A DNA stretch of 64,000 bases, taken from the NCBI GenBank assembly GCA_964415295.1, contig CAYPYN010000002.1, positions 24,485 through 88,484 of the forward strand, written 5' to 3'. The DNA is from an uncultured Bacteroidota bacterium. GTDB taxonomy: Bacteria > CLD3 > SB21. Positions 32,414 through 62,059 of the stretch are shown here, piece by piece. Made by a program: the position numbers and the translations under genes. Position 1 is the stretch's first letter. Every line of letters begins with the position of its first letter. Under the pieces are notes generated by a model, which saw only the letters and a program-made list of their open reading frames with translations, was not told the origin of the DNA and made no database searches.

Positions 32414-32478
32414 AGATCCTCCTTCAGGATAAATAATGGAATACGTTAATTCAATGGATGAGATGTTCCCCATAGAGA

Positions 32479-34009: not shown

Positions 34010-34151
34010 GATACGTCTCCTTATGGTTATGTGAATGGCAATTGTGATCCGGGAATGGCTTATTGTAAGAAAACTTTTTCGAAAAGACAACTTTTTTGCT
34101 GTCTTTACTGAATAAATTGTAGTAAAATTTATTTGAATTAACTTCCACACA

Positions 34152-34944: not shown

Positions 34945-36333
34945 ATGAAAATACAATTCTGCGGCGCGGCAAAAAGCGTAACGGGTTCACAGCATCTGCT
35001 TTCCATCAACGGCAAGAAGCTCTTGCTCGATTGCGGCCTGTTCCAGGGTCACCGTGATGAGGCATTCAACCGGAACCGTAATTTCCCTTTCGACCCTGCG
35101 GAGATCGATGCTATGGTTCTTTCCCATGCGCACATCGATCATAGCGGCAATATCCCGAATCTGGTGGAAAAAGGGTTCAAAGGCAGCATTCACTGCACGA
35201 CTCCAACCGTGGATCTGTGCAAGGTCATGTTACAGGATTCCGCTTTTATACAGGAGCGAGACGTTGAGTTCATGAATAAGCGTCTGGCAAAGAAAGGCGA
35301 AATGCTCCGCGAGCCTCTCTACACGGTCAAACAGGCGCAGGCGTCGCTGGCGCAATTCAAAGGCATCGATTACGGCAAGACGTTCGAACCGATCCCGAAT
35401 GTCAAGGTCACATTTTTCAACGCCGGACATATGTTCGGCTCTGCTATGCTCCTTCTGGAGATCGTAGACAAAGGCAAGACATGGCGTGCCGGATTCACCG
35501 GCGACCTTGGACGTAAAAACCTGCCGATCATACAGGATCCGGATCAGATCACCTATCTTGACATCCTGATATCGGAAAGCACCTATGGGAACAAACTGCA
35601 CGATCCGGCTAAAGAGATCCAGGGCGACCTTGTGAGGGTGATCAAGGAAACCGTGGCCAAGAAAGGCAAGATCATCATTCCGGCTTTCAGTGTGGAGCGA
35701 ACGCAGGAGATCGTGTATCATCTCAACAAGCTGTATGAGAATAAGCTGGTCCCATCCATCCCGGTATTTGTTGACAGCCCGCTTGCAGTTAATGTGACCG
35801 ACGTTTTTACAAAATATCCGCGCTATTACGATGCGGAAGCGCAGTATCTTTTATCGCGGGATGATAATCCGTTCGTATTCACAGGACTCCGTTATATTTC
35901 CAAAGCGGACGATTCCAAAAAACTCAACGAGCTGAAAGAACCTTGCATCATCATTTCTGCATCCGGCATGTGCGAGGCAGGCCGCATTTTGCACCACCTG
36001 GCTAATAATATCGAGAATGCCAATAACACCATACTCATCGTCGGTTTTATGGCGGAGCATACGCTTGGACGTAAACTGGTTGACAAGGTCAGCCCGGTGA
36101 AAATATTCGGCGAAGAATATCAGGTCAATGCCCAAGTGGTCAAACTCAATTCATTCAGCGGACATGCGGACAAGAACGATCTGATGAATTTTGCCAAGAA
36201 GGTCGGCAAACAGGCTTCGGTTTTCCTCGTTCACGGTGAGGAACCGCAAAGCCAACCCTTTGCCGAGGCCTTGCGCGCGGATGGTTTCAAGAACGTAACC
36301 GTGCCGGATCTGTTGCAGAAGTTTGAATTCTGA
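34945..36333 (+). CDS. MBL-fold metallo-hydrolase, beta-CASP RNA-metabolising type
   Basis: Metallo-beta-lactamase motif HAHIDHSGN plus downstream beta-CASP-like His/Asp motifs; 462 aa. Confidence 0.6.
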   Translation: MKIQFCGAAKSVTGSQHLLSINGKKLLLDCGLFQGHRDEAFNRNRNFPFDPAEIDAMVLSHAHIDHSGNIPNLVEKGFKGSIHCTTPTVDLCKVMLQDSAFIQERDVEFMNKRLAKKGEMLREPLYTVKQAQASLAQFKGIDYGKTFEPIPNVKVTFFNAGHMFGSAMLLLEIVDKGKTWRAGFTGDLGRKNLPIIQDPDQITYLDILISESTYGNKLHDPAKEIQGDLVRVIKETVAKKGKIIIPAFSVERTQEIVYHLNKLYENKLVPSIPVFVDSPLAVNVTDVFTKYPRYYDAEAQYLLSRDDNPFVFTGLRYISKADDSKKLNELKEPCIIISASGMCEAGRILHHLANNIENANNTILIVGFMAEHTLGRKLVDKVSPVKIFGEEYQVNAQVVKLNSFSGHADKNDLMNFAKKVGKQASVFLVHGEEPQSQPFAEALRADGFKNVTVPDLLQKFEF

Positions 36334-45086: not shown

Positions 45087-46001
45087 CTAGTCCTTAACGC
45101 ATCGCACATTAAAGCCGTGCAAAGCAACATGCCAGATTTGTGCCACATTGGCATAACTATAGCCCAAAGAAATGGTCCACGCTGCTACACCACCATCAGC
45201 TGACCACCACGTGCTGTAGAGTCTAACGTCATCAAAATTGCCTTGGTAACCTCGGAAACCACCCGGAAGCGCCGTAAAACCCGACTCATTAGTTGCTCCC
45301 ACATTAGGGCTCGTCCAGTGTCCTGATCCCTCCTCTTTAAGCTTTCCTCCAGCCACATCTGTCCCACCTAAGAACGTTATCAAAGTCTTCCACTCCTCTA
45401 AACTCGGAATATGCCAACCCGGAGGGGCGGATATCATCGCATTTTCCCAATTGTATAAACGTCCATAAACATTATAAGTTGAAGAGTCGTCATTGTAATA
45501 CCATGACCCACTTGCAGTCTGATATTCCAAATTCTCTGACATCCACGTCTGCGTTCCAATAGTCACTGTTTTATATAACCGGCCATCACGGGAATCGGTG
45601 AAAGTTCCAGTCTGATAGAATGCACTTGTCGTCAAGGCTACTTGCAAACCATAACTTGTCGCAACGCTGTTTGTCGCATACGCTCTGAAATAGTATGTCG
45701 TGTTTGGGATCAATCCCGTAATGTGACTAGTGAACGATCCAGTTCCCATGCCTTCAGTTGTTTTGTTATCTTCAATTGTGGGACTTGGAAACGTACTCCA
45801 ACATATTCCTCTTACTGTAACAGTATCACCGCCATCGTCGGTTACATTGCCTCCAACACTTGCCGACACGGGCCACGCGTGCATTATCGGATTTGTGTCA
45901 ACCGTTGGAGGAAGGTCCACAGTCACAAAGTCCGTACAAGCCACGCTGTTTGATAGAACCAAAATCACTGCAAGTTGAAAGAGGCTTCTGAATGCACCCA
46001 T
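45087..46001 (-). CDS. Fibrobacter succinogenes major paralogous domain (FISUMP) lipoprotein
   Basis: ATG at 46001; lipoprotein signal (LVLSNSVAC); FISUMP-type motifs (GRLYNWENAM, GWHIPSLEEWKTL). Confidence 0.6.
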   Translation of the reverse strand: MGAFRSLFQLAVILVLSNSVACTDFVTVDLPPTVDTNPIMHAWPVSASVGGNVTDDGGDTVTVRGICWSTFPSPTIEDNKTTEGMGTGSFTSHITGLIPNTTYYFRAYATNSVATSYGLQVALTTSAFYQTGTFTDSRDGRLYKTVTIGTQTWMSENLEYQTASGSWYYNDDSSTYNVYGRLYNWENAMISAPPGWHIPSLEEWKTLITFLGGTDVAGGKLKEEGSGHWTSPNVGATNESGFTALPGGFRGYQGNFDDVRLYSTWWSADGGVAAWTISLGYSYANVAQIWHVALHGFNVRCVKD

Positions 46002-46105
46002 GTCTTTACCTTTGTTGCTATGATGCTGACTAATACAGCGGTTCAGAAACAATTTGCACAGGGCACAATCAATCGTCTTAAAACCCTCTGCAATGCAATA
46101 GAGCC

Positions 46106-46843
46106 CTATTTCGATTCTGACCGCACTTTGGAATATATGCTTTTACTTTGGCTGACTTTCGATGTAAAAGTACCCCTGTTTCTAACCGTGATACCTCCAT
46201 TTTTCACATCGTAACTCTTCTTGGCAAGAATAGCATAGTTGATCAACCATGTCGCCAAAGCACCCGCCGCAAATATGTATGATTGCTTGCGCTGTGCAAC
46301 AGCTTTACTGTAATACTTTTCTTTAAGTTTCTTCCTATAATCACTGTAATTCTTCTCAGCTGAATACTCGTATACAATACTTGCTGCGAGTGAGGTATAG
46401 CCCAACGCTCCCCATAACAAGTTCAATTTTTCGCCTGTCAATTCATACGTACCATAGCCGGGATATTTGGTCGAATACCACATATTCTGACCAATGTCAT
46501 TTGGCAACAATCTCACGGCACTGACTTCAAATGCGATCTCCAGTTCCTTTGCGTAAGGAAAATCATCACGCCATTTCCAGATTATCTCTTTCTGACCCCC
46601 CCCTTTAACGTTACGAATGTCACCGCTCACACTCTTCAGATGGAATCTTTGCCTTCCTTTGTCTATTGCCACACATGTCACATAATAATCCTCCTGGAGC
46701 ATGCTGCCTGAGATGTCATATGTAATGCGAAGACTGTCATTCATATTGACGAAATCGACGTTAGTGATCAGGCCTCCTTTCAACTGGCCAAACAAACAAC
46801 ACGGCATAACCGTCAAGGCAAATAGCATGGTAAAAGTTCTCAT
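46106..46843 (-). CDS. Hypothetical protein (signal peptide, C-terminal hydrophobic segment)
   Basis: ATG at 46843 (MRTFTMLFALTV...); no recognised family. Confidence 0.35.
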   Translation of the reverse strand: MRTFTMLFALTVMPCCLFGQLKGGLITNVDFVNMNDSLRITYDISGSMLQEDYYVTCVAIDKGRQRFHLKSVSGDIRNVKGGGQKEIIWKWRDDFPYAKELEIAFEVSAVRLLPNDIGQNMWYSTKYPGYGTYELTGEKLNLLWGALGYTSLAASIVYEYSAEKNYSDYRKKLKEKYYSKAVAQRKQSYIFAAGALATWLINYAILAKKSYDVKNGGITVRNRGTFTSKVSQSKSIYSKVRSESK

Positions 46844-46984
46844 TCTGTCTCCATTTCGGATACAATAGTCAATGCAATAGGTTTTTGACCGCCATTCATT
46901 AATTCTAGTCAAAATAGCCGAACTTTGCTCTGTGTTCTGACAGTCAACTGTCAAATAGTCCATGATTACATAAGTCAACGTTCA

Positions 46985-48370
46985 TCACTTATGCACCTTC
47001 CTCACGAAATCCTCTACTTCAGGAACACCGCCCTGGAGAACGAGATAACCGTTGTAAGGCTCGCGTTCGGTGATGTCGTAACCGATCGGCGTAAGCATCA
47101 TCTTTTTTACTTCGACGGGATCTTCGGTCTGGCCGAGCACCCAGCCGAGCTTGATATAAGCCGTCTCGGGAAGCATATTGCCCAGCGGCACGACGCCTTT
47201 GGCCATCATGTCGCGCCCGGTGTCATAAACGAACATGTGCACGTAGCCCCAGATCGTCTGCACAACCATGAAGACCGACACGTCCTTGGCTTTGGCCTCT
47301 TCGATGGCAGGATAGAGTTCTTTATTTACATGTCCCAGCCCTGTGCCGACGATGACGATGCCTTTGTAGCCTTTTTCGATCATGGAGAACATCACGTCGG
47401 GTTTCATGCCCGGGTAATAATACAGCATCGTCGCTTTTTCGCTGAAGAACGGATAGATGTCCACATTCTTATCCTTTCGGCGGTGATTGTATTCCTTTTT
47501 GATCGGCGTGATCTTTTTTCTCGTGACCATCGCCACGGGCGTGTCACCGATCGTACGGAAAGTTGATCGATACGACGAATGCATCTTGCGCACGCGCGTG
47601 CCGCGGTGCAGTAAGCCGTATTCATCCGACGTCGGGCCGAACATACACACCATGACTTCCGCGATGTCGGCATTGCCGGCGGTATACATCGCGTGCATGA
47701 GATTCAGCGCCGCATCGGAACTCGGCCGGTCGGACGACCTTTGAGACCCAACCATGATGATGGGCACAGGCGAATTCTGCACCATGTACGTCAGGACGGC
47801 AGCGGTATGCTGGAGCGTGTCCGTGCCGTGGCCGATCACGATGCCGTCGATGCCGTGGCGTATCTCTTTGACAATGGCATGCGCCAGCGCGATGTATTGC
47901 TTCGGGCCCATATTCTCGCTGAATACGGCGAAGATCTTCTCCGTCTCCAGATTGCAGATCTCGGCGAGTTCGGGCACCGCGCCGTAGAGTTCCCCCGGCG
48001 AAAAGGCCGGGATCACGGCGCCCGTTCGGTAGTCGAGCCTCGATGCGATCGTGCCGCCCGTGCCGAATAGTTTCACGTACGGCAGGCCTTTGGTGGTCGG
48101 AAACTGTTTCTCCGGTATCTGGTAATTGGCTTTTTTGTAGCCGGTTTCGCGGATGGCGGTAATGGTCTTCACGTCCACGCCGATATTGTACCCCGACGCG
48201 ATCTTCAGAACGATGTGTTCGTCGTCGGTATTCTCCGCACGCGGGAGTATCGTTCCCTGAAAAAGTCCGCGCGTGGATTCGATATCCACCGACGCCCATA
48301 CGCGGGCCGTGTATTTTTTGAGGACCTCTAAGGCGCGTCCTTTGTAGCCCTGGAATATGTTGTCGCTCAT
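46985..48370 (-). CDS. gatD: Glutamyl-tRNA(Gln) amidotransferase subunit D-like (archaeal-type GatD)
   Basis: 461 aa; GatD-specific N-terminal domain (GYKGRALEVLKKY..., DEHIVLKIASGYNIGV) followed by asparaginase-type domain with GTGGTIAS. Confidence 0.75.
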   Translation of the reverse strand: MSDNIFQGYKGRALEVLKKYTARVWASVDIESTRGLFQGTILPRAENTDDEHIVLKIASGYNIGVDVKTITAIRETGYKKANYQIPEKQFPTTKGLPYVKLFGTGGTIASRLDYRTGAVIPAFSPGELYGAVPELAEICNLETEKIFAVFSENMGPKQYIALAHAIVKEIRHGIDGIVIGHGTDTLQHTAAVLTYMVQNSPVPIIMVGSQRSSDRPSSDAALNLMHAMYTAGNADIAEVMVCMFGPTSDEYGLLHRGTRVRKMHSSYRSTFRTIGDTPVAMVTRKKITPIKKEYNHRRKDKNVDIYPFFSEKATMLYYYPGMKPDVMFSMIEKGYKGIVIVGTGLGHVNKELYPAIEEAKAKDVSVFMVVQTIWGYVHMFVYDTGRDMMAKGVVPLGNMLPETAYIKLGWVLGQTEDPVEVKKMMLTPIGYDITEREPYNGYLVLQGGVPEVEDFVRKVHK

Positions 48371-48930
48371 GGGTAATTCACTTTCTGCATATTTTCAACC
48401 TGCCCGCCGGAAACCTGTTTTCGTATTCTCGGCCTTGATAAAAACGCCGGTGAAACCCGAGTTCGCAGACATGATTTGCGGAAAACGGCTTTCAGTAAAA
48501 GTCAAGTTTAACGTCTCTTCAAGATAGAGAATCGTTTTTAGCAGCCCGATCTGCGAACGAGGGTTAGGCATTTTTATCACAGCCGAAGTTTTCTTTGCCA
48601 CTTTCTTTTCTAAAAAGAAAGTGGATCCAATGACTAATATTTGAAAAACCATCCGGTTTAGAAAACCATTCTTCTTTCTTTTGCTGGCCCAAAGGAAAGA
48701 AGGAAAGAAAAGGGCCTTGGCTGTTGAAAAAACACCTAAAATCTCCGCTTCAGCCCTAAACAAAACAAACTCGCCCGCCGATACGGCGGACTCGGACATG
48801 TTTTGTTTTTAACGGGCTTTCGCTTCGATTTTTTGACGGCGTTTTTTCAAAGGCCCGAAAATTCACGTGATTTTTCTCATCACAATATGGTATCGAATAA
48901 TCTCTTTGCACCACCCTGGCCAGAATGGGG

Positions 48931-50952
48931 TTAAGATATCGACGCTTGAACCTTCCCGCTCAATTCCGTCAGATTCATATTCCCCAGCGCCATGCGGCTC
49001 AATTGGCCCATCACCCAGCGGGAACAGGCGCCGTCCAGACTGGAATTATCGATCTGCGAGAATTTTTTGATCATGAACGGGATCAGTTCCGTGATCTCGT
49101 TCTTGGTCGCGGCTTTGTAACGGATATTGAGCAATACGGAATCAAAATCCAGTTTGGGATGATGGTAATATTCCACCAGCATCATACCCGCAATATTCAG
49201 TTCCATCCCGCGGTCTTTGAGGAACTTGAACAGGTCGTAGATCCGGTCGTAACTGAAATCCTTGGCGGTGGTATAATGATTCTCAACATATTTCATCTGA
49301 TGCCCGAGGAAGATACCGGTGTGGCGGTGCGGGATGCCGAGTTCGTCATGGATCTTCTCCATCAGCCCTACGAGATTCTTTTTGAGAATGAATGTATACG
49401 TGTCTTCCGGAACATTCCACGAGCGGAGCTGTTGTATACGGTCAAAGACGTCCACAGGAATGGCGCGGCGGATCGCTTCGATCTTGTCGTCATCGAGCGG
49501 GATAGGTGCGGAATCGGTATCCGGGTACATGCGGTCTGCGCCGGGAAGAACGCGTTCGAATACCGTCGTACCGTCATGCGATGACTTACGCGTCTCATTG
49601 GGAACGCCTTTGAAGGCCATGCGGCAGCGTTCCTCCACCGTCTCGATCGCCGTGGGAATATCCTCTTTCGGCCCCCACAGAACGATCCATGCATCATCGC
49701 CGCTGCAATTAAGCAATTTAACGATTCTCTCCGACTCCTGTTCGGCAATGTGCGTACGCATATTCTCCGAATGGATCATATTGGGTTTCTCAATACACGC
49801 GATCACTTTGAGCCGCGATGATATCTCATCGGCGAACATCTGACCGGGCTGAGTAAAATGCGATAATATACTCTTGAAGCCCGGCAGTCGAACGGCTACG
49901 ATCTCGTGTTTGGCAACTTTCGCCGCGGCCATCGGTTCGTAACTGAACGTCCAATCGTCCGGTTCAAGTTTGACGGATTCTGTTTTCCACGAATCCGGAT
50001 TGCGGACCTTTTTTTTCAGAAGTTCCACGATGCGCAGGAGCGCGAACTGCCGGAATGCCTCGTTGTGCGTCAATTGGGGCATCCAGCGCGTGTGCGCAAC
50101 GCCTTTGATCTCGACGCGTGTGCCGCCGCGGCAGCTGACATTGACGTCGGCGCGGGTGGAACCGATACCGGTCCGGACTTTTCCAGTACTGCGGTTCAAA
50201 AAACGGATATAATCCGCGCCTTCTTTTACTTCATCGGGATTCACAAAATCCGCATGCGTCACCGTTTCGATCAGCGGCATGCCGAGACGGTCCGTCTTGT
50301 ACACGCGCACATGGCCGATGTCGGAAATTTCCCGGCAGGAATCCTCTTCGATGCTCAACTGGATGAGGTTGACCGTCTTGTGTTTCAGCTGGATCTTCCC
50401 GCCGACGCCGATGATGGCCGTTCTCTGGAATCCGGTCGGAATACTGCCGTCGAGGTACTGCTTGCGGGTGATGTGAACTTCTCCCACGATATTCATCTTA
50501 TTCAAGATCGAGATCTCCAGCGCGATATCGAGCGCTTCCGGATCCATGGCGAAAGGCGGCGTATCGTCCACCTCATACGTACACGCCGTTTTATTTTTGA
50601 TGCGGTAAATAATGTTCTTTCGGGTCTTGAATTCCATCAGCGCCGTACCGTCGTACTCGCCCAGTTCGCTCAGCGTCGGGCGCATGTGGCGAATGACCTC
50701 CGCGTCGTAATCGTCGTGGGCGTTGTATTTTCCGGCCGGACAGCGGCAGAAAAGTTTCCGCCGTGTCAGCAGCTGCTGGTGAACTTCCAGTCCGGACTTG
50801 AATCCGATCCGGTCGTAATCTTCCTGCGTGGCATCTTTCCGGCTGACGTATCCGATGGCTTGTTTGCTTTGTTCGTAATTCTGCTGGGGATCAAAAGGCT
50901 GGTTCATGAGGATTGTGCACCATGTGAAGCATCGATTGATGTTGTCTTGCAA
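48931..50952 (-). CDS. gatE: Glutamyl-tRNA(Gln) amidotransferase subunit E-like (archaeal-type GatE)
   Basis: 673 aa; GatB/E catalytic core with GatE-type signature DYDRIGFKSGLEVHQQL...RKLFCRCP and insertion-sized extra length versus GatB. TTG start at 50952; alternative ATG at 50907. Confidence 0.75.
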   Translation of the reverse strand: MQDNINRCFTWCTILMNQPFDPQQNYEQSKQAIGYVSRKDATQEDYDRIGFKSGLEVHQQLLTRRKLFCRCPAGKYNAHDDYDAEVIRHMRPTLSELGEYDGTALMEFKTRKNIIYRIKNKTACTYEVDDTPPFAMDPEALDIALEISILNKMNIVGEVHITRKQYLDGSIPTGFQRTAIIGVGGKIQLKHKTVNLIQLSIEEDSCREISDIGHVRVYKTDRLGMPLIETVTHADFVNPDEVKEGADYIRFLNRSTGKVRTGIGSTRADVNVSCRGGTRVEIKGVAHTRWMPQLTHNEAFRQFALLRIVELLKKKVRNPDSWKTESVKLEPDDWTFSYEPMAAAKVAKHEIVAVRLPGFKSILSHFTQPGQMFADEISSRLKVIACIEKPNMIHSENMRTHIAEQESERIVKLLNCSGDDAWIVLWGPKEDIPTAIETVEERCRMAFKGVPNETRKSSHDGTTVFERVLPGADRMYPDTDSAPIPLDDDKIEAIRRAIPVDVFDRIQQLRSWNVPEDTYTFILKKNLVGLMEKIHDELGIPHRHTGIFLGHQMKYVENHYTTAKDFSYDRIYDLFKFLKDRGMELNIAGMMLVEYYHHPKLDFDSVLLNIRYKAATKNEITELIPFMIKKFSQIDNSSLDGACSRWVMGQLSRMALGNMNLTELSGKVQASIS

Positions 50953-51116: not shown

Positions 51117-51659
51117 CTACGCTCCATCCGCCTGATCGTCACCACGGCGTAAAGGATGCGGCGGAAGATTAAGCACTTCTTCCGAGAAATAACTGACGAT
51201 GTACTCGATCATGCCCTTAACGGACGTGTGTCCGATCGGCTCCATTTTATCGTTAACGATCGCGATATGGCGCGTTTCGTGCTTACGGAAAACCTTAACA
51301 GCCTCTTTGATCGGATCGGTCAGTTTGAGGCAAATGGGTTCTTTACGCATATAATCGTCAACCCTATCCTTAGCATAATCCGGACATTTGTCTGCGATCT
51401 TGTAAAGCAGATGGCGCTCGGTCAGTATTCCGATGAGTTTCATGTCCTTAACGACCATCACGCATCCCACGTTGTGGTCGCCCATCAACTTTACGGCATC
51501 CTTGAGCAGACTGCCGGATTGTACGATCAACGGAGCCGGCGGTTCTAAAAGACCGATCGGTTTGTTGAAATCCTCAATGTGGATCTCGTGTTTGTCCAGT
51601 TCACGTTCGAGTTCGTCCATGTGGACCAACTCGTCTTCCAATTCGTGTTGATTGGTCAT
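51117..51659 (-). CDS. CBS-domain pair protein
   Basis: Tandem CBS motifs (GCVMVVKDMKLIGILTERHLL, ...IAIVNDKMEPIGHTSVKGM); ATG at 51659. Confidence 0.6.
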   Translation of the reverse strand: MTNQHELEDELVHMDELERELDKHEIHIEDFNKPIGLLEPPAPLIVQSGSLLKDAVKLMGDHNVGCVMVVKDMKLIGILTERHLLYKIADKCPDYAKDRVDDYMRKEPICLKLTDPIKEAVKVFRKHETRHIAIVNDKMEPIGHTSVKGMIEYIVSYFSEEVLNLPPHPLRRGDDQADGA

Positions 51660-51670
51660 GGTCAAGTCTC

Positions 51671-52075
51671 CTAAAATTTCAGTTCGTCTATGATGTGATC
51701 AAGAATATGCTCGATGGTCAAAATACCGACCGGCTGACGATCTTTTCCAAGTACCACAAGACTTCGATATCCGCCCACCGACATTTCGTTGAGCGCATAC
51801 GCTGCCGAATCGTCGTTATAAAGGTACGTCGGATATTCATCCATCAACTGGCTGATCTTGAGGTTCTTCAGGTCGACGTTGCGTGACAGACTGCGCAGAA
51901 CATCCCGTTCGGTGAGGATCCCGGCCCATTTATCGCCGTCCTTGATAAGCACACAGCCCATCTGATGCTCTTTCATACTGATCACAGCGTCTTTGACCGA
52001 GGCGTCTTTGCTCAGGTAAAAAGGCTCCTTGGGATCTAACGTATTTACTTTGGATTTAACCAGACTTGCATTCAT
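51671..52075 (-). CDS. CBS-domain pair protein
   Basis: Tandem CBS motifs (GCVLIKDGDKWAGILTERDVL, ...LVVLGKDRQPVGILTIEHI). Confidence 0.6.
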   Translation of the reverse strand: MNASLVKSKVNTLDPKEPFYLSKDASVKDAVISMKEHQMGCVLIKDGDKWAGILTERDVLRSLSRNVDLKNLKISQLMDEYPTYLYNDDSAAYALNEMSVGGYRSLVVLGKDRQPVGILTIEHILDHIIDELKF

Positions 52076-53463: not shown

Positions 53464-54042
53464 TTAGTTTGAGCTGAATAAGCCGGCGAATCCCATGAAC
53501 GCCATGGAAAGCAATCCGGCGATGATAAGGCTCAGCGCCGTTCCTTGAATCAACTTGGGCACATCCATTACTTTCGTTTCTTCCCTAATGCCGGCCATCA
53601 GTACCAGCGCCAGCGTCATACCTCCTCCGCCTCCGATGGAATAGATCAGTCCCTGCACTAACCCGTATTCCTTCGTTGTCTGGAAAAGCGCCAGCGCCAG
53701 GATCGCGCAGTTGGTCGTGATCAGGGGAAGATAAATTCCAAGCGCCTTAAAAAGTTCCGGACTGAGTTTCTTTATGACCATTTCAACGAACTGCACCGTG
53801 CTGGCGATCACCACGATATAACTGATCAAACCCAGGTACGGGGCGAACGGCAGGATGTACGTATTCAACGCCCACGTGCACAGCGATGTAATGACCATAA
53901 CGAAGATATTGGCCAAACCCATGCGGAAAGCCGTCTGAACCCGGTCGGATACACCCAGGAACGGACAGATGCCGAGGAACGACGACAGCGTGAAGTTATT
54001 GATCACGAGCGCTGAAACGAATATCCAAAGCAGATCACCCAT
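53464..54042 (-). CDS. rnfA: Rnf electron-transport complex subunit A
   Basis: RnfA/NqrE pattern (LVINNFTLSSFLGICPFLGVS..., ...LPLITTNCAILA). Confidence 0.85.
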   Translation of the reverse strand: MGDLLWIFVSALVINNFTLSSFLGICPFLGVSDRVQTAFRMGLANIFVMVITSLCTWALNTYILPFAPYLGLISYIVVIASTVQFVEMVIKKLSPELFKALGIYLPLITTNCAILALALFQTTKEYGLVQGLIYSIGGGGGMTLALVLMAGIREETKVMDVPKLIQGTALSLIIAGLLSMAFMGFAGLFSSN

Positions 54043-54049
54043 CTTGCAC

Positions 54050-54697
54050 CTATGCTTTCTCCGCCAGTTTCATTTTCGCGCGTTCCGCCTGTTTACTCTT
54101 ATACCAGTTCACGAACAGCATCATAAAACCTAATAATAAAAATCCGCCCGGAGGCAGGATCATGATGACCCAAGGTTCGAAATGCGGACCGAAAAGGGAA
54201 ATACCAAACAGTGATCCGTTACCCAGAATTTCCCTGATTCCGCCCAGAGCCAACAACGCCAGAATGAACCCTACTCCCATTCCGAGCGCGTCCAATACAG
54301 AGAGCCACGCCGTATTCTTGTACGAAAAGGCTTCCTGTCTGCCCAGAATGATACAATTCACAACGATCAACGCGATAAATGCGCCGAGTTCTTTATGGAT
54401 CTTCGGAAATGCAGCCTGCAGTGAAAAATCAACGGCCGTCACAAAGGTTGCAATAATAACGACGAATGTCGTGATGCGGACCTGCTTGGGGATCCAGTTC
54501 CTCAAAACGGACACAAGCCAGCAGGATGCCACGAGAACAATCGTGGTCGCCAGTCCCATGGCTAAACCGTTGACCGCGGTATTGGTCACGGCCAGCGTGG
54601 GACACATGCCCAGTACGCTGACAAAGGTCGGGTTCTCTTTCCAGAGTCCTTTGATGAATTCCTGATATGCGCGTCCGTGTTCTTCCATCGAACTCAT
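54050..54697 (-). CDS. rnfE: Rnf electron-transport complex subunit E
   Basis: RnfE/NqrD pattern (VLGMCPTLAVTNTAVNGL, ...IALIVVNCIILGR); start overlaps the rnfG stop. Confidence 0.85.
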   Translation of the reverse strand: MSSMEEHGRAYQEFIKGLWKENPTFVSVLGMCPTLAVTNTAVNGLAMGLATTIVLVASCWLVSVLRNWIPKQVRITTFVVIIATFVTAVDFSLQAAFPKIHKELGAFIALIVVNCIILGRQEAFSYKNTAWLSVLDALGMGVGFILALLALGGIREILGNGSLFGISLFGPHFEPWVIMILPPGGFLLLGFMMLFVNWYKSKQAERAKMKLAEKA

Positions 54698-55380
54698 GGT
54701 TTTGTTCCGTAGGTTAATTGATTCTTCTGCACGTAGGCATCAATCGCCGTTCGCCATGTATCCAATGACTTCTGCATCGCACGCACGATCGCCTTGGACG
54801 AGATAGTGGCACCGGTGATCGTCTCTACCTGATTGGGCTGGGTTTTCTTGCCAGTTTTCACGGGTTCGATCTTGGGATCAACGGCCAGCGCGGTGAAATT
54901 GGATACAAAATGTTTATCCTTGTAGATCTTATCCCCTAAACCGGGTGTTTCCTTGCTGTCGAGTACTTCATAACCGATCACCATTTTTCCGACACCGTCA
55001 AAACCGTAGAGAATCCTAAGCATGTCGGCAAATCCCGGTTCGTTGCCGGGGATCGCAAAACCGATCACGGCGCCTTTTTCGTTGTACCCCAGAAAAATGC
55101 GAGGAACGGAACGATCGGACTGATTGACCTGCCTGACAAGCTGCCCGTTCTCGAGTATCATGGCCTCAAACTTGTTGCAACCCGGCAATACGCGGTATAC
55201 CGCTTCCTGCAAAGCTTCCTCTTTATTACGTTCAATGATGGGCAGCGTGAATACGTACGCACAAACCAGAACCAATCCTGAAAAGAATCCGGCTACCGCC
55301 AGCGTCGCGATCATCTGAAAGGAACTGGTTTCCTTCGTGGATAAGACAGGTATCTCTGTATGTATCTTCTGTTCTTCCAT
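54694..55380 (-). CDS. rnfG: Rnf electron-transport complex subunit G (FMN-binding)
   Basis: ATG at 55380 overlapping the rnfD stop by 1 nt; N-terminal TM helix; FMN-binding-domain motif (ITGATISSKAIV). The ORF-track 5' extension to 55536 overlaps rnfD. Confidence 0.75.
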   Translation of the reverse strand: MEEQKIHTEIPVLSTKETSSFQMIATLAVAGFFSGLVLVCAYVFTLPIIERNKEEALQEAVYRVLPGCNKFEAMILENGQLVRQVNQSDRSVPRIFLGYNEKGAVIGFAIPGNEPGFADMLRILYGFDGVGKMVIGYEVLDSKETPGLGDKIYKDKHFVSNFTALAVDPKIEPVKTGKKTQPNQVETITGATISSKAIVRAMQKSLDTWRTAIDAYVQKNQLTYGTKP

Positions 55381-56381
55381 TATTTCGTTCCGTAAACCCG
55401 GTATGGCGTAACCCTGTTGATCAGCGGCGTTACGGCATTCATCAGCAATATGGCATACATCACGCCTTCCGGCAATCCTCCGAAGATGCGGATCAGCACG
55501 ACCAGGAATCCTATACCCGCGCCGAATATCCAGCACCCTTTGATCGTAAAGGGCGAAGTCACCGGATCGGTTGCCATGAACACAGCACCCAACAAAAGTC
55601 CGCCGGAGAATATCATGTGCATCGGCGACGGGTAGATCGCGGGATTGACCAGATGCAGGATGCCCGATAGTAGTGCGGTTGCGGTCAAGATGGAAACCGG
55701 TATGTGCCAGTTGAATATCTTTCTCATAGCCAGATAAATGCCGACAAGGATGATGATCAGTCCGGAAGTTTCGCCGAGTGAACCGGCGGTATTCCCGATC
55801 ATCAGATTAAATAGGTCCGTAGCTTCGTGCTGGAATTTCATCGCTGAAAGCGGCGTGGCTCCCGTGAGGGCGTCCACTTTTTCTCCCTGGAAAAATGGAA
55901 TGGCCAGATTAGCACCGCGCGCCGATAAAAATTGACCGTCCGGAGCCGACCACGTGGTAATGGCTGTGGGAAAAGCCGCTTGCAGAAAGGCCCGGCCGAT
56001 CAGCGCCGGATTGAAAATGTTCTGTCCCAATCCGCCCCAGATCACTTTGCCCAGAACAACGGCGGCAATGCCTCCCAAGAACGCCATCCAGAGCGGAAAT
56101 CCCGGCGGCAGGGTCAGCGCGAATAAAAGCCCCGTGATCAAGGCGCTTCCGTCTTTCAGCGATTTGTAACGCGGTTTATCATTTGAGAAGAACCATTCTG
56201 TCGCAAAGCAGGACGCTACGCCGGTTGCGCACAGCAGGAAAGTGCTCAATCCGAAAAAATAATAAGCTGCGCCGATAACCGGGATGAGGGCGAAAACAAC
56301 CTGGTACATGATCCAAGGCGTGCTCACCTCATCATGCAGAAATGGAGACGTTGAAAGATTCAATTTAGACCGGTCTTCCAT
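55380..56381 (-). CDS. rnfD: Rnf electron-transport complex subunit D
   Basis: ATG at 56381 overlapping the rnfC stop by 1 nt; polytopic membrane protein with RnfD/NqrB pattern (...GATPLSAMKF..., FMATDPVTSP). Confidence 0.85.
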   Translation of the reverse strand: MEDRSKLNLSTSPFLHDEVSTPWIMYQVVFALIPVIGAAYYFFGLSTFLLCATGVASCFATEWFFSNDKPRYKSLKDGSALITGLLFALTLPPGFPLWMAFLGGIAAVVLGKVIWGGLGQNIFNPALIGRAFLQAAFPTAITTWSAPDGQFLSARGANLAIPFFQGEKVDALTGATPLSAMKFQHEATDLFNLMIGNTAGSLGETSGLIIILVGIYLAMRKIFNWHIPVSILTATALLSGILHLVNPAIYPSPMHMIFSGGLLLGAVFMATDPVTSPFTIKGCWIFGAGIGFLVVLIRIFGGLPEGVMYAILLMNAVTPLINRVTPYRVYGTK

Positions 56382-57724
56382 CAGTTCTTTGCCCTTCGTT
56401 CCCGAATAATACTTTTTGCCACGCGAAAACTCTGCACTAACGGAATGCCCGACGGGCAGACGAACGAGCATGACGCGCATTCAAAACAATCCATGATATG
56501 CAGCGGTTCCATATCCTCGTACAATCCTTTTCTCGCCAGAAGTCCCATTACGGAAGGATTGAGATACATCGGACAGACTTCCACGCAGCGCGCACAGCGG
56601 ATGCATTTGTATTCCGTCATATCCTGAACTTCATTATCCGTCAACACCAGAACGCCGGAAATACCTTTGGTCACCGGCACGTCGAGCGACTTCTGGGCAA
56701 TGCCCATCATCGGCCCGCCGAGCAGGATGCGAACGGCTTTGCTGGTCACTCCGCCGCAATAGTCGATCAGATGTTTGATAGGTGTTCCTACGGGAACCAT
56801 CAGATTCGCCGGACGCCGAATGGCCGTTCCCGTCACCGTCACCACGCGTTCGATCAGAGGAACCGACTGCGTGAAATACTGGGCCAGCGCCACCAGAGTT
56901 CCGACGTTGGAAACCAGCGTCTCAATATCAATAGGCAGTTTACCGGATGGAACTTCTTTGTCGAGCACCGCTTTGATCAGCATTTTTTCCGCACCTTGCG
57001 GGTATTTGACTTTCAGACCGATGACTTCATAGGTCACGTTCTGCTTTTTAACTTCTTCTTTCAGAACACGGATCGCATCGGGCTTATTATTCTCAATGCC
57101 TATATAAACTTTTTCCGCCGGTATGAAATGGCGCATGATCGTCAGGCCTTCGACCAGCTCTTTCGCAAATTCGACCATGATGCGGTGGTCGGCGGTCAGG
57201 AAAGGTTCGCATTCGCATCCGTTGGCGATGATGTAATTGCAGCGCTTGCCTTCGGGAATGGAGAATTTCACATGCGCCGGAAAACCCGCGCCGCCGAGGC
57301 CCACGAGTCCGGCCTGCTGAACGCCGTCTACAAATTCCTTGAACGAAAGATCCTGCCACGGACGCGGCTTCGGCATATCCACGGTCTGCGCAGAAAAAGG
57401 ATCGGCCTTGATCTTGATCGCCTGAACAAGCAATCCGTTGGGATGTTCACCGAGCTCGATCGCCGTAATCGTTCCGGTGACGGGAGCGTGCTGCGCCACA
57501 GACACAAAAGAAGCCGGTTTGGCGATCATCTGTCCGCGTTTCACGTGCTGGCCTTTTTGTACGATCGGGATCGAAGGCGCACCGGCGTGCTGGGAAAGCG
57601 GAACCACATACTCATCCACAAAGGGCATACGTTCCACGGCCAAAGTGCCGGTGAATTCTTTATACTCTTCCGGATGAACCCCGTGGTGAAAGGTCAAACG
57701 TTCTGTTGAATGATTATCTGTCAT
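56381..57724 (-). CDS. rnfC: Rnf electron-transport complex subunit C
   Basis: RnfC pattern with NADH-binding region (GLVGLGGAGFPAHVK) and two 4Fe-4S motifs (CIRCARCVEVCP, CFECASCSFVCP). Confidence 0.85.
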   Translation of the reverse strand: MTDNHSTERLTFHHGVHPEEYKEFTGTLAVERMPFVDEYVVPLSQHAGAPSIPIVQKGQHVKRGQMIAKPASFVSVAQHAPVTGTITAIELGEHPNGLLVQAIKIKADPFSAQTVDMPKPRPWQDLSFKEFVDGVQQAGLVGLGGAGFPAHVKFSIPEGKRCNYIIANGCECEPFLTADHRIMVEFAKELVEGLTIMRHFIPAEKVYIGIENNKPDAIRVLKEEVKKQNVTYEVIGLKVKYPQGAEKMLIKAVLDKEVPSGKLPIDIETLVSNVGTLVALAQYFTQSVPLIERVVTVTGTAIRRPANLMVPVGTPIKHLIDYCGGVTSKAVRILLGGPMMGIAQKSLDVPVTKGISGVLVLTDNEVQDMTEYKCIRCARCVEVCPMYLNPSVMGLLARKGLYEDMEPLHIMDCFECASCSFVCPSGIPLVQSFRVAKSIIRERRAKN

Positions 57725-57727
57725 AGT

Positions 57728-60700
57728 TCAATTCTTGTGACCGTAACCCGACAGTTCCATCAATTTATCCCGCAGTTTCGCTTTGACGGATTCCATCTGT
57801 GCGTTTTCCTGCGACCGAAGCTTTTCCTCGTATTCCGCCTTGATTTGTTCCAAAGCCGTATTCTGCTTGGCTGTCCATTCTTCGTCCAGGCGTTCTTTCA
57901 GTTTCTGCGGATACGGCGTGAGCATACCGGCGATCTCGCGGAGCGTTCTCCACGATAGATGCGCCGCTTCGGCGGCCCGCATGATTTCAGACGGAACTTC
58001 ATACTTCATTGTCCGATCCTGTTCCCCGATCCTGAGAACGCAGCACCGCTTGCCCGGACGATCATTTTCAGCAAGTGACAGATACTCGTTCATCGCCATG
58101 CCGTTTCTGTCATCGTCCGGTAATGCAGCGAAGGCATCACGGTATTCTTTCTGTTCGAACGCCCAATCGGCGAAGGTAACTATGTAATTACCGCCTGAAT
58201 AACTGACCGGCTTCGAAAAATCATCATACGATTCCGGGTTCGCGCCAAGATCCATGGACTCGGAATACAGCGGTTTCTTGTCGCTTGGTATAAAACGCAG
58301 CGCCGGGAAGGCTCGCGAACGAAGCGCCAATTGAAACATGGATGGATAATGCATGGCGATATCCGCCGGAGCATCCGGAGTCAGAACCCTGAAGAGCCCG
58401 GGATCGGCATGACGCAGGCCTTCGGTCAGCCCTTTGAAAAGATGTGCCGGATCGGCCAGCGAGGCCTGAAGGAAATAACATTTCTTAAGCGACAATATCG
58501 ATGTAGTAAGAGCCATTTGCTCTTGCCGGCTTTGGGCAGAACTCTTCACCGGATCGAACACAAATATTTTGACAGGCAGTTCCGAAGTCAGAAGTTCGAT
58601 CACCGATGGCACGTTCATTCCGGAGATCATAGCGGGATCGACAAAAAGCAGAACCGGAGGCACCATAGACTTTTCGGCCTCATTCAGATCGCTCCACGCA
58701 AGGCGCGCGATCTTAGCGTCATGCACATGCGGTTGATACTGATTTTGCGACTCGAGTTCCGCGCGGCGCAGTAATTTGATATTGTCCAACATTTGCCGCA
58801 CGTGACCTCTTACCAGGCCCAATATGAACGGCGCCGACGAAGGATCGTCCATTACGATGGCCGGTGAGGTGAATACGTTGAACGGCACCGATTTAGCCCA
58901 GTTCAATCCGTCGGAGCTGGACAGAACCGCGCCGAAACGGGATCGGCCTGTTCCTGCCGGACCTTTGGAGAGAACGAATGACAACTGCTTCAGATCTTTG
59001 ATCAGTCCGGCTACCCGTTCCACCCAGGCCGTTTCGATCACGCCGAATCGCTGGGTCTCGCTCAGTTTAGCCATGACATTATCTACAGTGACCCGTGCGG
59101 TTTCACCGGACAAACTGTTCAAAAGATTCTCGACATTGGCGATCGGCAGTGCGTCCTTCAGTTTGTTCTGGATCTTGTCGGTCAGGTTCTGAATGTATTG
59201 ATCGATCTCTTTCAATCTCTGATTGATCTCCGACTGCCGCATCGATTCCGTCACCGACGCGATCACATGCATCATGATCTTCTGCGAAACGCCGTCCTTT
59301 GAAGCGATGCCGCCGGCCATGGACATATAATAATTACGGCTCAGCATGATCGCCGCGATCGGATCATACGTGTCATCTTTGATAAGGGTTTGTATGATAT
59401 CTCCGCCGGTATCGGGCAGTTGTTCCCACACGCGGAAAGCGGATCGATGTGTATGCGATCGTTCCGCGCTTTGCGGCACCATCTCCAACGCGCCATCCGT
59501 GCATACATTGACGCACATTCCGCAGCCGGTACAGGCCTGAGGGTTGATCACGGCAGAATAAAGCAGACCGCTGCCTTTCATCTGGGACTCCGTCCGAGTG
59601 AAGAATCGATCCGTGGCCGAAACCGGCAGTTCGCGGACAAAATTTTCAACGGTCTTGATCTCTCCGGTTAAAGCCGTCAGTTTTTCGCCTTCGATCTTCA
59701 TTTGTGCAGCTAATTTTTCTGAAGAAGCCTGAAGAACGTCGGTGATCGAATATAGGTCTTTCACACCGGAAATCGCTTGGTTGATCAGTTTCGACAAATT
59801 TTTGATAACGGGCGGCGTCAGTTGATTCATGACAGTTCCCGCCGCCTGGGCCTTTTCAACCGCCGTTTTGATCATCGCTTCCGCGGAGATCACGATCGCC
59901 GGCATGGCCGATTCCGGGCAATACACGGAGCATTGTCCGCATCCGGTACACTTTTCCGGTGAGATAACGGGAATGAAAGAACGCGCCGCTCCTGCATCGG
60001 CAAAATTAGCCGTCGCCGCCGGCATGACAGGCACTGCTTGCAAAGGATCGGCCACTAATTCGCCCGTCTTCCCCTGCTCATAAAATATCCCCGTACGGTC
60101 GTAGAACTGGGAAACCTTGGAGTACGGCGGCCCGTGATCCTCATAGCGGCGCAGGGTCAGCGGTAATTCTTTGACCGCGGCCTGTTTTACAGACAACGCC
60201 GCTGATTCCAGTTTTTTTATTTCGGTCAGGCCTTTGGTAAAATGGTCTTTATTGCTATCCGATAAAACGATCCCTAATTCGTTCGTTACGAATTTTTCAA
60301 AATTCGCGGCTTCGGATTCGGCAACGGTTTCATTGAAGAACGGCGCGGTCGGCGTTAGCATAACTCCCTGCAGCCATTCGGGATCTTCAACGGCACCTAC
60401 AACGTGTTTTAAGTGCAATTTAAGTTCAGATACTTTCGATCGAACGGAATCTTCCAGTTCAATGACCTCTCCTTCATGACCGGATACGATCAAAACCGTT
60501 GCGCCGTTTTTCAAGCGGCCAAGACTGCCGGGACGATTGATAGAGACGGCATCCGTAATAAGGCAATCGATATCGTTCTCTTTTTCCAGAGTATACGGCC
60601 ACGGTTCTCGGGTTAAACTTAACTGTTTATCACCGGCCTTGACACGGGCCTTCAACCTGAATGCCAGCCATTCCGCGGCAGACTCTACAGAATCCATACT

Positions 60701-62059
60701 CTGTGGATGAGAGAAACCAATGGAAAACGTTTTATCAGAGGAGATTTCCGACTTTTCGGCGGCTTTCAACATGCGGCTTTCGAGCGCCGGGAAATCGCGA
60801 TTCAGATTTTGCAACAATATCTGCTGTTTGGGATACGAGGATGATTGGCGGGTAAGTTGCGAGCCAATAAAGAACCGCCTCTTACCTCCTTCAGCCATGT
60901 TCTCAAAAACAGAGACAAGATCGACATAATTCAGTTCTCCGTAGCGTCCGGCATATAACGTCGGCCGCTCACGTTCGCTGAGAGAAGGAAGTTCAGGATA
61001 AACCAGTGTTTTCTTATTGGAGGAATTCTGAACAGCTTTGTCCAGTGCAGACAGAACGTCCGTATACAACACGCTTTCGTTTTCAGCGCTCAGACTTTCA
61101 AGTATGGTCACGGCCTTCTTGCCGCGAAGTCGTTCACAGATCTCAGATTCAGGAAATGGCTTTGAAACATTCACATTCAAACAGCCGGCTTTGATCTTTT
61201 TTGATCTCAAATGATCCACAACCGCTGCGGCTTTTTGAAACGCGCTTCCTTGAACGATCAATATGTATTCCGCATCATTCATCTTATGTGAAGTGACGCC
61301 TGAGTAGTTTCGGCCCGTCAGTTTGCCGAATTCCGTACAAGCCTGCATCAGAATCGAGGAAGCGGAATCCCCGATGTAGATATCGTGTGCTGCCTTCTCC
61401 AGGGTCATGGCGCCGGGGTCTTTTGAAACGCCATTGATCGTCGGATAATCAAAATGGAACCAATTCGGAATGCGGCGGCGTGTCTTTCCGAAGATCATTT
61501 TTTGCGCCGTATTCGGACATTCGACGAAATCGTCAGCATCGCCCAGAAATCCGATCAGGGTTTTCGGATCAGGTATATGGACGTTTTCGAAGACGGCATT
61601 ATCGTAAGCCACTACGACGGGTATCATCGCCTGTTCGGCTGTTTTATGTGCAATAATGGTAAGATCCACAGTTTCCTGAACGCAGGACGAACGAAGAAGA
61701 ATACAGCCGGTTCCGGCAATCGCCTTCAGAAGTTCGGGATCGGAAACATCCGCATGAATAACATAAGGCACATGACGGCGAACGGCTTCCATCAAAGATG
61801 TGAGTTCACGGCCGGTATTCTTCGAATCCATTTGGCCTGAAGCCCTTAAGCCGGACATGGCCAGCCCCATGGCAAACGATGCACCGGCGTTTTGCACGCT
61901 GCTTCCGATCAGCGGCCGCCCAAAGATATTTTGACGGCTTGATGATACCGGATCCGTAAGACTTTCACTAACAGCCGATTCGATGATCCGAATCGCTTGC
62001 GATCCATTGGCTGTTATGCTTTTGCCCACGACCAGATCGCTATTTCTTTCTAACCTCAT
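57728..62059 (-). CDS. Pyruvate:ferredoxin-oxidoreductase-like giant protein with degenerate TPP-binding region
   Basis: 1443 aa; N-terminal PFOR domain I/II-like segments (RQNIFGRPL, LRSSCVQETVDLTIIAH, KLTGRNYSGV, AGRYGEL); two ferredoxin motifs (CTGCGQCSVYCP, CTGCGMCVNVCT); C-terminal about 560 aa without the PFOR C-x2-C, GDG or NTGGQ motifs. ATG overlaps rnfB stop (ATGA); stop 3 nt before rnfC ATG. Confidence 0.6.
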   Translation of the reverse strand: MRLERNSDLVVGKSITANGSQAIRIIESAVSESLTDPVSSSRQNIFGRPLIGSSVQNAGASFAMGLAMSGLRASGQMDSKNTGRELTSLMEAVRRHVPYVIHADVSDPELLKAIAGTGCILLRSSCVQETVDLTIIAHKTAEQAMIPVVVAYDNAVFENVHIPDPKTLIGFLGDADDFVECPNTAQKMIFGKTRRRIPNWFHFDYPTINGVSKDPGAMTLEKAAHDIYIGDSASSILMQACTEFGKLTGRNYSGVTSHKMNDAEYILIVQGSAFQKAAAVVDHLRSKKIKAGCLNVNVSKPFPESEICERLRGKKAVTILESLSAENESVLYTDVLSALDKAVQNSSNKKTLVYPELPSLSERERPTLYAGRYGELNYVDLVSVFENMAEGGKRRFFIGSQLTRQSSSYPKQQILLQNLNRDFPALESRMLKAAEKSEISSDKTFSIGFSHPQSMDSVESAAEWLAFRLKARVKAGDKQLSLTREPWPYTLEKENDIDCLITDAVSINRPGSLGRLKNGATVLIVSGHEGEVIELEDSVRSKVSELKLHLKHVVGAVEDPEWLQGVMLTPTAPFFNETVAESEAANFEKFVTNELGIVLSDSNKDHFTKGLTEIKKLESAALSVKQAAVKELPLTLRRYEDHGPPYSKVSQFYDRTGIFYEQGKTGELVADPLQAVPVMPAATANFADAGAARSFIPVISPEKCTGCGQCSVYCPESAMPAIVISAEAMIKTAVEKAQAAGTVMNQLTPPVIKNLSKLINQAISGVKDLYSITDVLQASSEKLAAQMKIEGEKLTALTGEIKTVENFVRELPVSATDRFFTRTESQMKGSGLLYSAVINPQACTGCGMCVNVCTDGALEMVPQSAERSHTHRSAFRVWEQLPDTGGDIIQTLIKDDTYDPIAAIMLSRNYYMSMAGGIASKDGVSQKIMMHVIASVTESMRQSEINQRLKEIDQYIQNLTDKIQNKLKDALPIANVENLLNSLSGETARVTVDNVMAKLSETQRFGVIETAWVERVAGLIKDLKQLSFVLSKGPAGTGRSRFGAVLSSSDGLNWAKSVPFNVFTSPAIVMDDPSSAPFILGLVRGHVRQMLDNIKLLRRAELESQNQYQPHVHDAKIARLAWSDLNEAEKSMVPPVLLFVDPAMISGMNVPSVIELLTSELPVKIFVFDPVKSSAQSRQEQMALTTSILSLKKCYFLQASLADPAHLFKGLTEGLRHADPGLFRVLTPDAPADIAMHYPSMFQLALRSRAFPALRFIPSDKKPLYSESMDLGANPESYDDFSKPVSYSGGNYIVTFADWAFEQKEYRDAFAALPDDDRNGMAMNEYLSLAENDRPGKRCCVLRIGEQDRTMKYEVPSEIMRAAEAAHLSWRTLREIAGMLTPYPQKLKERLDEEWTAKQNTALEQIKAEYEEKLRSQENAQMESVKAKLRDKLMELSGYGHKN

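Follow-up and report, generated by a model that had tools for sequence, protein, structure and literature searches.

We analysed a 64,000-nucleotide stretch (hereafter the window) of contig CAYPYN010000002.1 from an uncultured Bacteroidota bacterium (assembly GCA_964415295.1). On its minus strand lie two genes, gatE and gatD, that encode the two subunits of an archaeal-type GatDE, which in archaea is the enzyme that amidates Glu-tRNA(Gln) to Gln-tRNA(Gln). GatDE has been called an archaeal signature or an archaea-specific enzyme (PMC2330236, PMC2811023, PMC9499178), textbooks confine it to archaea, and every paper within our search still does so, with none describing a bacterial GatDE. The annotation pipelines of NCBI and JGI already label hundreds of these bacterial proteins GatE (the public names being GatD/GatE); we are thus dealing with a known enzyme in a host range unreported by the literature available, and the sequences themselves are not new. 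In the window, gatE lies upstream of gatD on the same strand. The features discussed below are collected in Table 1.

Table 1. Positions within the window of the gat genes, their spacer and the other features mentioned in the text
Feature	Position	Strand	Description
gatE	48931..50907	-	predicted amidotransferase/kinase subunit acting on tRNA; 658 aa from probable ATG start
gatD	46985..48370	-	predicted glutaminase subunit, asparaginase fold and GatD-specific N-terminal domain; 461 aa, ATG
gatE-gatD spacer	48371..48930	-	560 nt, strongly structured
134-aa open reading frame (ORF) in spacer	48395..48799		no Pfam/family match
Tandem CBS-domain-pair proteins	51117-52075	-	134 and 182 aa; immediately upstream of gatE
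RnfC/D/G/E/A cluster with ApbE	53464-57724	-	
1443-aa protein	57728-62059	-	PFOR-type and ferredoxin-type (4Fe-4S) domains; directly upstream of Rnf cluster
ProRS	3206-4648	-	family I, archaeal/eukaryotic type
tRNA-Arg(CCG) gene	4678-4754		
Two DUF2911 proteins	31319-32524 and 33179-34150	-	
beta-CASP metallo-beta-lactamase nuclease	34945-36333	+	462 aa

The GatD and GatE subunits

The gatD product combines a GatD-specific N-terminal domain (PF18195, GatD_N; 46.5 bits, cut-off 25.7) with the asparaginase domains PF00710 (Asparaginase, 186 bits) and PF17763 (Asparaginase_C, 107 bits), an architecture that the first-pass annotation of the window had correctly recognised. It also passes two equivalog models, NF003217 (490.8 bits, cut-off 310) and TIGR02153 (486.6 bits, cut-off 324). 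Against the PDB, it scores 383 and 366 bits with the GatD chains 1zq1_A and 2d6f_A and at most 128 bits with plain asparaginases; together with the GatD_N domain, this difference rules out a stand-alone type I L-asparaginase. In Methanothermobacter thermautotrophicus, GatD requires a Thr nucleophile and a Thr-Lys-Asp triad (T101, T177, D178 and K254; PMC2330236). All four residues have counterparts in the window protein (T107, T183, D184 and K262, in the motifs TGGT, HGTDT and RKMH). The protein is also 88-90% identical to the gatE-adjoining GatD of four Bacteroidota loci with complete genes, and 88% and 83% identical to that of two loci where the gene is truncated.

The open frame of gatE reaches back to a TTG at 50952 (48931..50952, minus strand), which gives the 673 amino acids reported in the first-pass annotation. 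Since its relatives are about 655 amino acids long and their alignment to the 673-amino-acid ORF begins at residue 16 (M16), the true start is probably the ATG at 50907, giving 658 amino acids. While the length changed, the assignment to GatE stood. The archaeal GatE model (TIGR00134, gatE_arch) scores 382.2 bits, above its cut-off of 319.55, while no GatB model exceeds 103 bits, where the cut-offs are 315 or more (338 for the best model). PDB matches follow the same pattern (GatE chains 2d6f_C at 280 bits and 1zq1_C at 276 bits; GatB chains at about 50 bits). Comparison with GatB and asparaginases, part of the check that the annotation had proposed, favours GatD and GatE. The GatB/GatE cradle domain (PF02934, 156 bits) covers residues 53-491 on a model of 277 positions, and the catalytic domain must therefore contain a large insertion.

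The AlphaFold2 model of GatE (pLDDT 83.6, pTM 0.73) shows the cradle with an alpha/beta insertion at about residues 305-455, followed by helical bundles at 473-657 (pLDDT ~85-96); its alignment to the full-length GatB 3ip4_B extends over 656 columns. In a fold search with this model, the best match was 1zq1_C (E 1.4e-44). The two archaeal GatE structures matched at E 1e-44 to 1e-40 (TM 0.70-0.76), GatB matched at E ~1e-21, and the matches to AspRS were weak. We also considered that the protein could be a GatB, which is ruled out by the low scores of the GatB models (at most 103 bits), the poorer fold match (E 1e-21 vs 1e-44), the insertion domain and the lack of gatA or gatC nearby. The window pair resembles bacterial GatCAB in its expected job (amidation of Glu-tRNA(Gln)), in the homologous cradle of GatB and in a YqeY-like tail, which in the window GatE is putative. 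It differs in the AspRS-like insertion of GatE and in its glutaminase, which is the asparaginase-fold GatD rather than the amidase-fold GatA.

The Mg2+ ligands H15, E157 and E184 are essential in M. thermautotrophicus GatE (PMC2330236), and correspond to H43, E187 and E214 in the window protein. Across 83 archaeal cluster representatives, 70 positions are at least 93% conserved, and the window GatE retains 64 of them. The nonsynonymous divergence (dN) of the window genes from their relatives is 0.07-0.22, reported alone and with no dN/dS ratio, the synonymous divergence (dS) being saturated between relatives; such low dN beside saturated dS indicates strong purifying selection.

Compared with the solved archaeal enzymes of M. 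thermautotrophicus (2D6F) and Pyrococcus abyssi (1ZQ1), the window has both subunits with the same domain order. Its GatD is 43-45% identical to theirs over the full length and its GatE roughly 30-40% identical, the Thr/Thr-Asp-Lys residues of GatD and the His/Glu/Glu Mg2+ ligands of GatE are the same, and the best fold match reaches a TM of 0.76. The order gatE-gatD is also that of an archaeal locus (L014).

Bacterial host, distribution and origin

The window comes from a bacterial host, a member of the Bacteroidota. Bacterial equivalog models for ThrRS, IF-3, L35 and L20 match a thrS-infC-rpmI-rplT run in the window, followed by pheS (alpha subunit); other bacterial genes include rpsA (S1), the Rnf cluster with ApbE, a CarboxypepD_reg/OMP beta-barrel protein and a Fib_succ_major lipoprotein. 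The bacterial neighbourhood described in the first-pass annotation was thus borne out. The GC content is 0.44-0.53 across the window and 0.49-0.50 over gatDE, with no anomaly. The gene order PFOR-like, RnfCDGEA, ApbE, CBS, CBS, gatE is shared with an independent contig (L015, WBUR01000027.1) from another metagenome-assembled genome (MAG), at 70-83% protein identity, and a further locus (L001) has the same upstream layout as judged by ORF sizes. In addition, the Logan assembly of run SRR8109492 includes a contig that is 100% identical to window positions 45143..48593, covering gatD and the genes downstream.

With this synteny found again in independent assemblies, an archaeal or chimeric contig, one of the findings that the annotation had named as undoing its interpretation, is refuted. 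The unexpected taxonomy is all that speaks for archaeal DNA having been joined onto a bacterial contig during assembly or binning. Besides the Rnf-ApbE-CBS-CBS-gatE synteny in the independent MAGs L001 and L015 and the identical assembly that spans gatD and bacterial genes downstream, eight GTDB loci carry GatDE genes, a closed 4.13-Mb bacterial chromosome (CP070727.1) carries the pair, and GC content is uniform. We regard such an artefact as next to impossible.

Nor is the pair a peculiarity of this contig; hundreds of Bacteroidota MAGs share GatDE as a trait of their lineage, as do other phyla of the FCB group. Among 5.8 billion proteins, a word-indexed search found at least 120 GatE clusters (90% identity) of about 655 amino acids at 63-84% identity to the window protein. 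Those that carry a name are called GatE of Bacteroidetes, Bacteroidota, Bacteroidia or Bacteroidales MAGs and of one plain 'bacterium' MAG, and some of the contigs are up to 527 kb long. The eight loci found by a scan of GTDB are all from Bacteroidota or unclassified bacterial MAGs, originating from groundwater, mine and similar sources. We also searched 1.84 billion cluster representatives exhaustively with GatE. A single cluster reached 841 bits and about 45 reached 400-600 bits (43-53% identity), after which scores levelled off at 250-340 bits, where the solved archaeal enzymes also lie.

By names and contexts, the intermediate group in this search is mostly bacterial and includes candidate division CSSED10-310 and a 'Deltaproteobacteria' MAG. 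The neighbours of its gat loci include sigma54 activators, RND/OEP efflux, HU, ClpS, KdtA and a MurC-type ligase. Using one intermediate member (P0126) as the query gave at least 120 more clusters named Fermentibacteraceae, Aegiribacteria or Krumholzibacteriota, with contigs of 1.57-4.13 Mb, the closed chromosome CP070727.1 among them. We dropped the view that the whole intermediate group is bacterial once P0513, labelled Thermoplasmata, fell inside it. The context of P0513 (L017) leans archaeal, and those of L009 and L018 are not decisive.

Two sequences found along the way are unusual. One locus (L012, 8929-11716, CAYMBL010000017.1) has a shorter GatE-like gene (571 amino acids) with no gatD nearby, in a Gram-negative context (HU, ClpS, KdtA, a sulfatase, a fucosidase and a Topo VI B-like protein); a 354-amino-acid ORF without a Pfam match ends 8 nt before it. 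The representative P0163 is 943 amino acids long and possibly a fusion.

To place the bacterial sequences, we built neighbour-joining (NJ) trees on Kimura distances, which are rough, with partial GatB sequences from Thermus thermophilus, Aquifex aeolicus and yeast mitochondria as the outgroup. The Bacteroidota GatE subclade, including the window, has 100/100 NJ bootstrap support. A wider clade of bacterial sequences and a small basal grade was recovered in 100/100 replicates on 632 full-length columns and in 84/100 on the GatB-rooted cradle. In the rooted cradle tree, the remaining archaeal sequences were monophyletic in just 12-16/100 replicates, and the bacterial clade would therefore be nested within archaeal GatE.

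A Heimdall/Asgard group was the sister of the bacterial clade in 66/100 full-length replicates. Among the nearest archaeal relatives, P0153 scores 430 bits with the window GatE, compared with at most 340 for the other sequences placed in the archaeal group. Also among the nearest archaeal GatE is a set that contains Thorarchaeota and loci with EMC6_arch or Trm5/Tyw2 neighbours. P0513, encoded by CP070751.1 (L017, labelled 'Thermoplasmata archaeon'), sits with its allies in the basal grade of the clade, and its locus shares the glnA adjacency described below with the bacterial CP070727.1. The Heimdall/Thor and CP070751.1 proteins are only 39-43% identical to the window GatE, and their Pfam signature (GatB_Yqey, GAD, YqeY) and tail motif are those usual for archaea. 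CP070751.1 is probably archaeal, as the best TatC match at its locus is the archaeal TatC model (just below cut-off) and the locus also encodes a Methanosarcina-type beta-propeller repeat protein; the domain assigned to the basal grade rests on this one label and these two gene hints. CP070751.1 is a closed 5.16-Mb genome, unusually large for Thermoplasmata.

GatD shows the same order of relatedness. Identity to the window GatD falls from 89% in Bacteroidota loci to 63% in L010, a locus of another bacterial phylum, then to 48% in L014 (archaeal) and 43-45% in the euryarchaeal structures; for GatE, the figures are 70-82%, 43% and 30%. The simplest reading of these comparisons is a single transfer of the gatE-gatD operon from archaea to bacteria, followed by long residence. 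The transfer would be old, given the unremarkable GC content and the saturation of dS between relatives. The gene pair would then have been kept vertically in a large Bacteroidota subclade, inside a wider bacterial GatDE clade that goes back to archaea.

Of the origins considered, horizontal acquisition from archaea, one of the two options in the first-pass annotation, is thus the best supported, with the bacterial clade nested in archaeal GatE in both rooted and unrooted NJ trees and GatD following the same order. The annotation had also pointed to an archaeal-type ProRS in the window as a sign that archaeal translation genes were acquired jointly. This ProRS (TIGR00408, 614 bits) adds no support for that idea because it lies 43 kb from gatDE and is of family I, which we take to be the standard ProRS type of Bacteroidota.

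The opposite scenario, in which bacterial GatDE is a vertical relic from the last universal or bacterial common ancestor that most bacteria have lost, appears improbable to us. Sheppard and Soll proposed that LUCA, the last common ancestor of all life, possessed GatDE (as cited in PMC9499178), and the bacterial clade is deep, spans several phyla and is strongly set apart from most archaeal sequences (bipartition 100/100). Set against this are the rarity with which the other archaea form a group of their own when rooted with GatB, the position of the probably archaeal CP070751.1 and its relatives inside the base of the clade, and a patchy distribution concentrated in FCB-group phyla.

Proposed function and tRNA recognition

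We consider it likely that gatD and gatE, acquired by old transfer, give this Bacteroidota bacterium a functional Glu-tRNA(Gln) amidotransferase, GatDE, of heterodimeric (alpha2beta2) form. The case for a working enzyme is that the catalytic residues, the fold and the great majority of the archaeal invariant positions are kept, and that the genes are under purifying selection. Going by homology to the archaeal enzyme, GatD would hydrolyse Gln (or Asn) using its Thr nucleophile and Thr-Lys-Asp triad, and the ammonia would pass to GatE through an intramolecular tunnel. GatE would hold Glu-tRNA(Gln) by its cradle, AspRS-like insertion, helical and YqeY-like tail domains, phosphorylate the gamma-carboxyl of the tRNA-bound Glu with ATP/Mg2+, and amidate it to give Gln-tRNA(Gln).

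The gene context offers some further hints. In two closed genomes, glnA adjoins the gat genes, which fits a glutamine-consuming enzyme; the order is glnA-gatE-gatD in the bacterium CP070727.1 (L016, 8558-13394), and gatD-glnA divergent from gatE in the 'Thermoplasmata archaeon' CP070751.1 (L017, 6732-11938). We found no glnS, gatA, gatB, gatC, asnS or gltX in the window or in the 19 fetched loci (at most 10 kb either side), and a tRNA scan of the window and of L001-L016 gave no tRNA(Gln) gene. The flanks of the gat genes are different in every lineage, as expected of a housekeeping operon.

Several observations weigh against a GatDE of this kind. If the host has a discriminating GluRS together with GlnRS, no Glu-tRNA(Gln) substrate would exist. 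The window enzyme also differs from archaeal GatDE in its bacterial host and in having as its expected substrate a bacterial tRNA(Gln), which normally carries a U1-A72 pair. In archaea, GatDE recognises an A1-U72 pair together with the archaeal D-loop (PMC2330236, PMC2811023). In GatB, a loop of the tail forms the D-loop-binding pocket (PMC2811023), and we compared the equivalent loop of GatE. The pocket-loop motif G[KR]x[DEP]G occurs in 54/83 archaeal and 12/27 other bacterial representatives, and in 0/9 of the Bacteroidota subclade. Where archaeal GatE has 'RGKxDGK', the Bacteroidota subclade has 'ALGNMxLxEL', part of a conserved 'W[IV]MG..(5)..A.GN[MI].L.EL'. We used the pocket-loop motif rather than the GatE tail motif of the literature (GXXAXGX), as the strict pattern of the latter is found in just 13/83 archaeal representatives.

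Two results from the profile models belong here as well. At 448.6 bits, the window GatE falls just short of the NF003107 cut-off of 456, and Pfam does not detect GatB_Yqey (PF02637) or GAD in it, although GAD (PF02938) is precomputed for some of its close relatives. The phylogeny is NJ-only, and its root stands on 199-202 columns of partial GatB. Finally, co-transcription of the two window genes is uncertain because a 560-nt structured spacer with a terminator-like hairpin separates them, and in the two closest relatives (L001 and L015) gatD does not adjoin gatE.

The tail is not the only part of GatE that has changed. Six archaeal near-invariant positions are altered in the window protein (G205R, R215T, Q222A, Q240A, D340E and E341N in M. 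thermautotrophicus numbering). R215, replaced by Thr in the window, belongs to a basic loop facing the first base pair, and Q240 is never retained in the bacterial group. Bacterial GatE mostly lacks the precomputed PF02637/PF02938/PF09424 matches (GAD insertion, YqeY-type tail) carried by archaeal GatE. The window proteins also have extensions that set them apart from the archaeal enzyme, about 20 residues at the C-terminus of GatD and about 28 at the N-terminus of GatE; the latter is conserved, absent from archaeal GatE and predicted to be helical with high confidence. These changes are as expected if the enzyme had adapted from an archaeal (A1-U72) to a bacterial tRNA(Gln), and would leave room for altered recognition.

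Perhaps, then, bacterial GatDE has a changed or broadened tRNA specificity (U1-A72, the bacterial D-loop and maybe Asp-tRNA(Asn)) and acts as the sole amidotransferase in place of GatCAB. The diverged D-loop-contacting tail, whose replacement is nevertheless conserved within the subclade, the loss of Q240 throughout the bacterial group, the R215T change, the missing domain matches and the confidently predicted N-terminal extension could all be read in this way. However, the cradle and the 'GKVR' basic loop remain conserved for the most part, and peripheral domains are expected to diverge over a long separate history; their divergence alone does not show a new specificity. We therefore think such a shift unlikely, and continue to favour a GatDE that amidates Glu-tRNA(Gln).

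Even less credible is that the pair merely resembles GatDE and has taken on some other amidation or phosphorylation reaction outside translation; recruitment to another amidation role was an option that the first-pass annotation had left standing. Such a role would fit the unexpected host domain, the narrowly missed NF003107 cut-off, the diverged tail motif and the uncoupling of gatD and gatE in some relatives (L001, L015 and L012). It would not explain why the structure model, with high confidence, appears to keep the full four-domain tRNA-binding architecture (insertion, helical and putative tail domains included), or why all Mg2+ ligands, the asparaginase residues and 64/70 archaeal invariant positions are retained. 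Furthermore, GatD is extremely conserved, and no biosynthetic or other functional neighbours are conserved across the loci.

A bolder version of the favoured reading, which we put forward tentatively, is that a large block of uncultured FCB-group bacteria, comprising many Bacteroidota, Fermentibacteria and Krumholzibacteriota, may depend on GatDE alone for Gln-tRNA(Gln). The genes would have come, in an ancient transfer, from a Thermoplasmata-like or Asgard-like archaeal donor and displaced GatCAB and/or GlnRS, with the tail and the loop facing the first base pair retooled for U1-A72, and with a Glu/Asp specificity that was possibly broadened.

Reviews up to 2022 treat GatDE as an archaea-only marker, and a large, conserved bacterial clade contradicts the description 'exclusively archaeal'. 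That archaea never gained GlnRS has been explained by the co-evolution of GatDE with archaeal tRNA(Gln); bacterial GatDE is a natural experiment on the adaptation of an amidotransferase to foreign tRNA identity elements (A1-U72 vs U1-A72, and the D-loop). The clade also bears on the proposal of GatDE in LUCA, where our rough trees favour transfer from archaea. For annotation, gatDE in a bin should not count as archaeal contamination. What has been missing so far is recognition and experimental study of bacterial GatDE.

The gatE-gatD spacer and other features of the window

In most relatives, gatE is directly followed by gatD, adjacent or overlapping (L002-L007, L009-L011 and the archaeal L014). 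Where the spacer was measured, it is 8-53 nt long (L002, L003, L005, L006 and L007) or 248 nt (L004). The longer spacer of the window, which leaves its two genes non-contiguous, has an RNA fold z-score of -5.0 relative to shuffled controls. Its inverted repeats form two long imperfect hairpins and a perfect 12-bp hairpin at 48598-48624, and a GC-rich terminator-like hairpin lies at 48791-48773, about 140 nt past the gatE stop. The independent Logan contig (L019) ends within the spacer, at 48593.

The spacer matches no Rfam family above threshold, has no second copy in the window, the fetched loci or plasmids, and contains no remnant of pgi or rsmB, the genes that follow gatE in L001 and L015. 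It is probably a palindromic insertion, and the 134-amino-acid ORF within it is probably spurious. In L001 (11984-15665) and L015 (11984-15657), whose gatE products are 82% and 80% identical to that of the window, pgi, a TPR gene and rsmB come after gatE. With pgi and rsmB in place of gatD in these relatives, the gatE-gatD junction is a rearrangement hot spot. A promoter search gave no excess of sigma-70-type promoters, and no Bacteroidota TAnnTTTG motif lies upstream of gatE or gatD.

Upstream of gatE, the two CBS-pair proteins are 81-83% identical in L015 and have size-matched ORFs in L001, with no evident functional link to gatDE. The block formed by the 1443-amino-acid PFOR-type protein and the Rnf/ApbE cluster is also kept in L015. 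At the far end of the window, the tRNA-Arg(CCG) gene is located just upstream of ProRS.

The beta-CASP nuclease is another window protein with archaeal-looking affinities. Its greatest similarity is to the type VII CRISPR Cas14 model (409.8 bits, cut-off 800) and to archaeal aCPSF1 (303.5 bits, cut-off 580), below the cut-off in both cases. The two DUF2911 proteins are paralogous and encoded near each other, and one of them has C-terminal TPR repeats.

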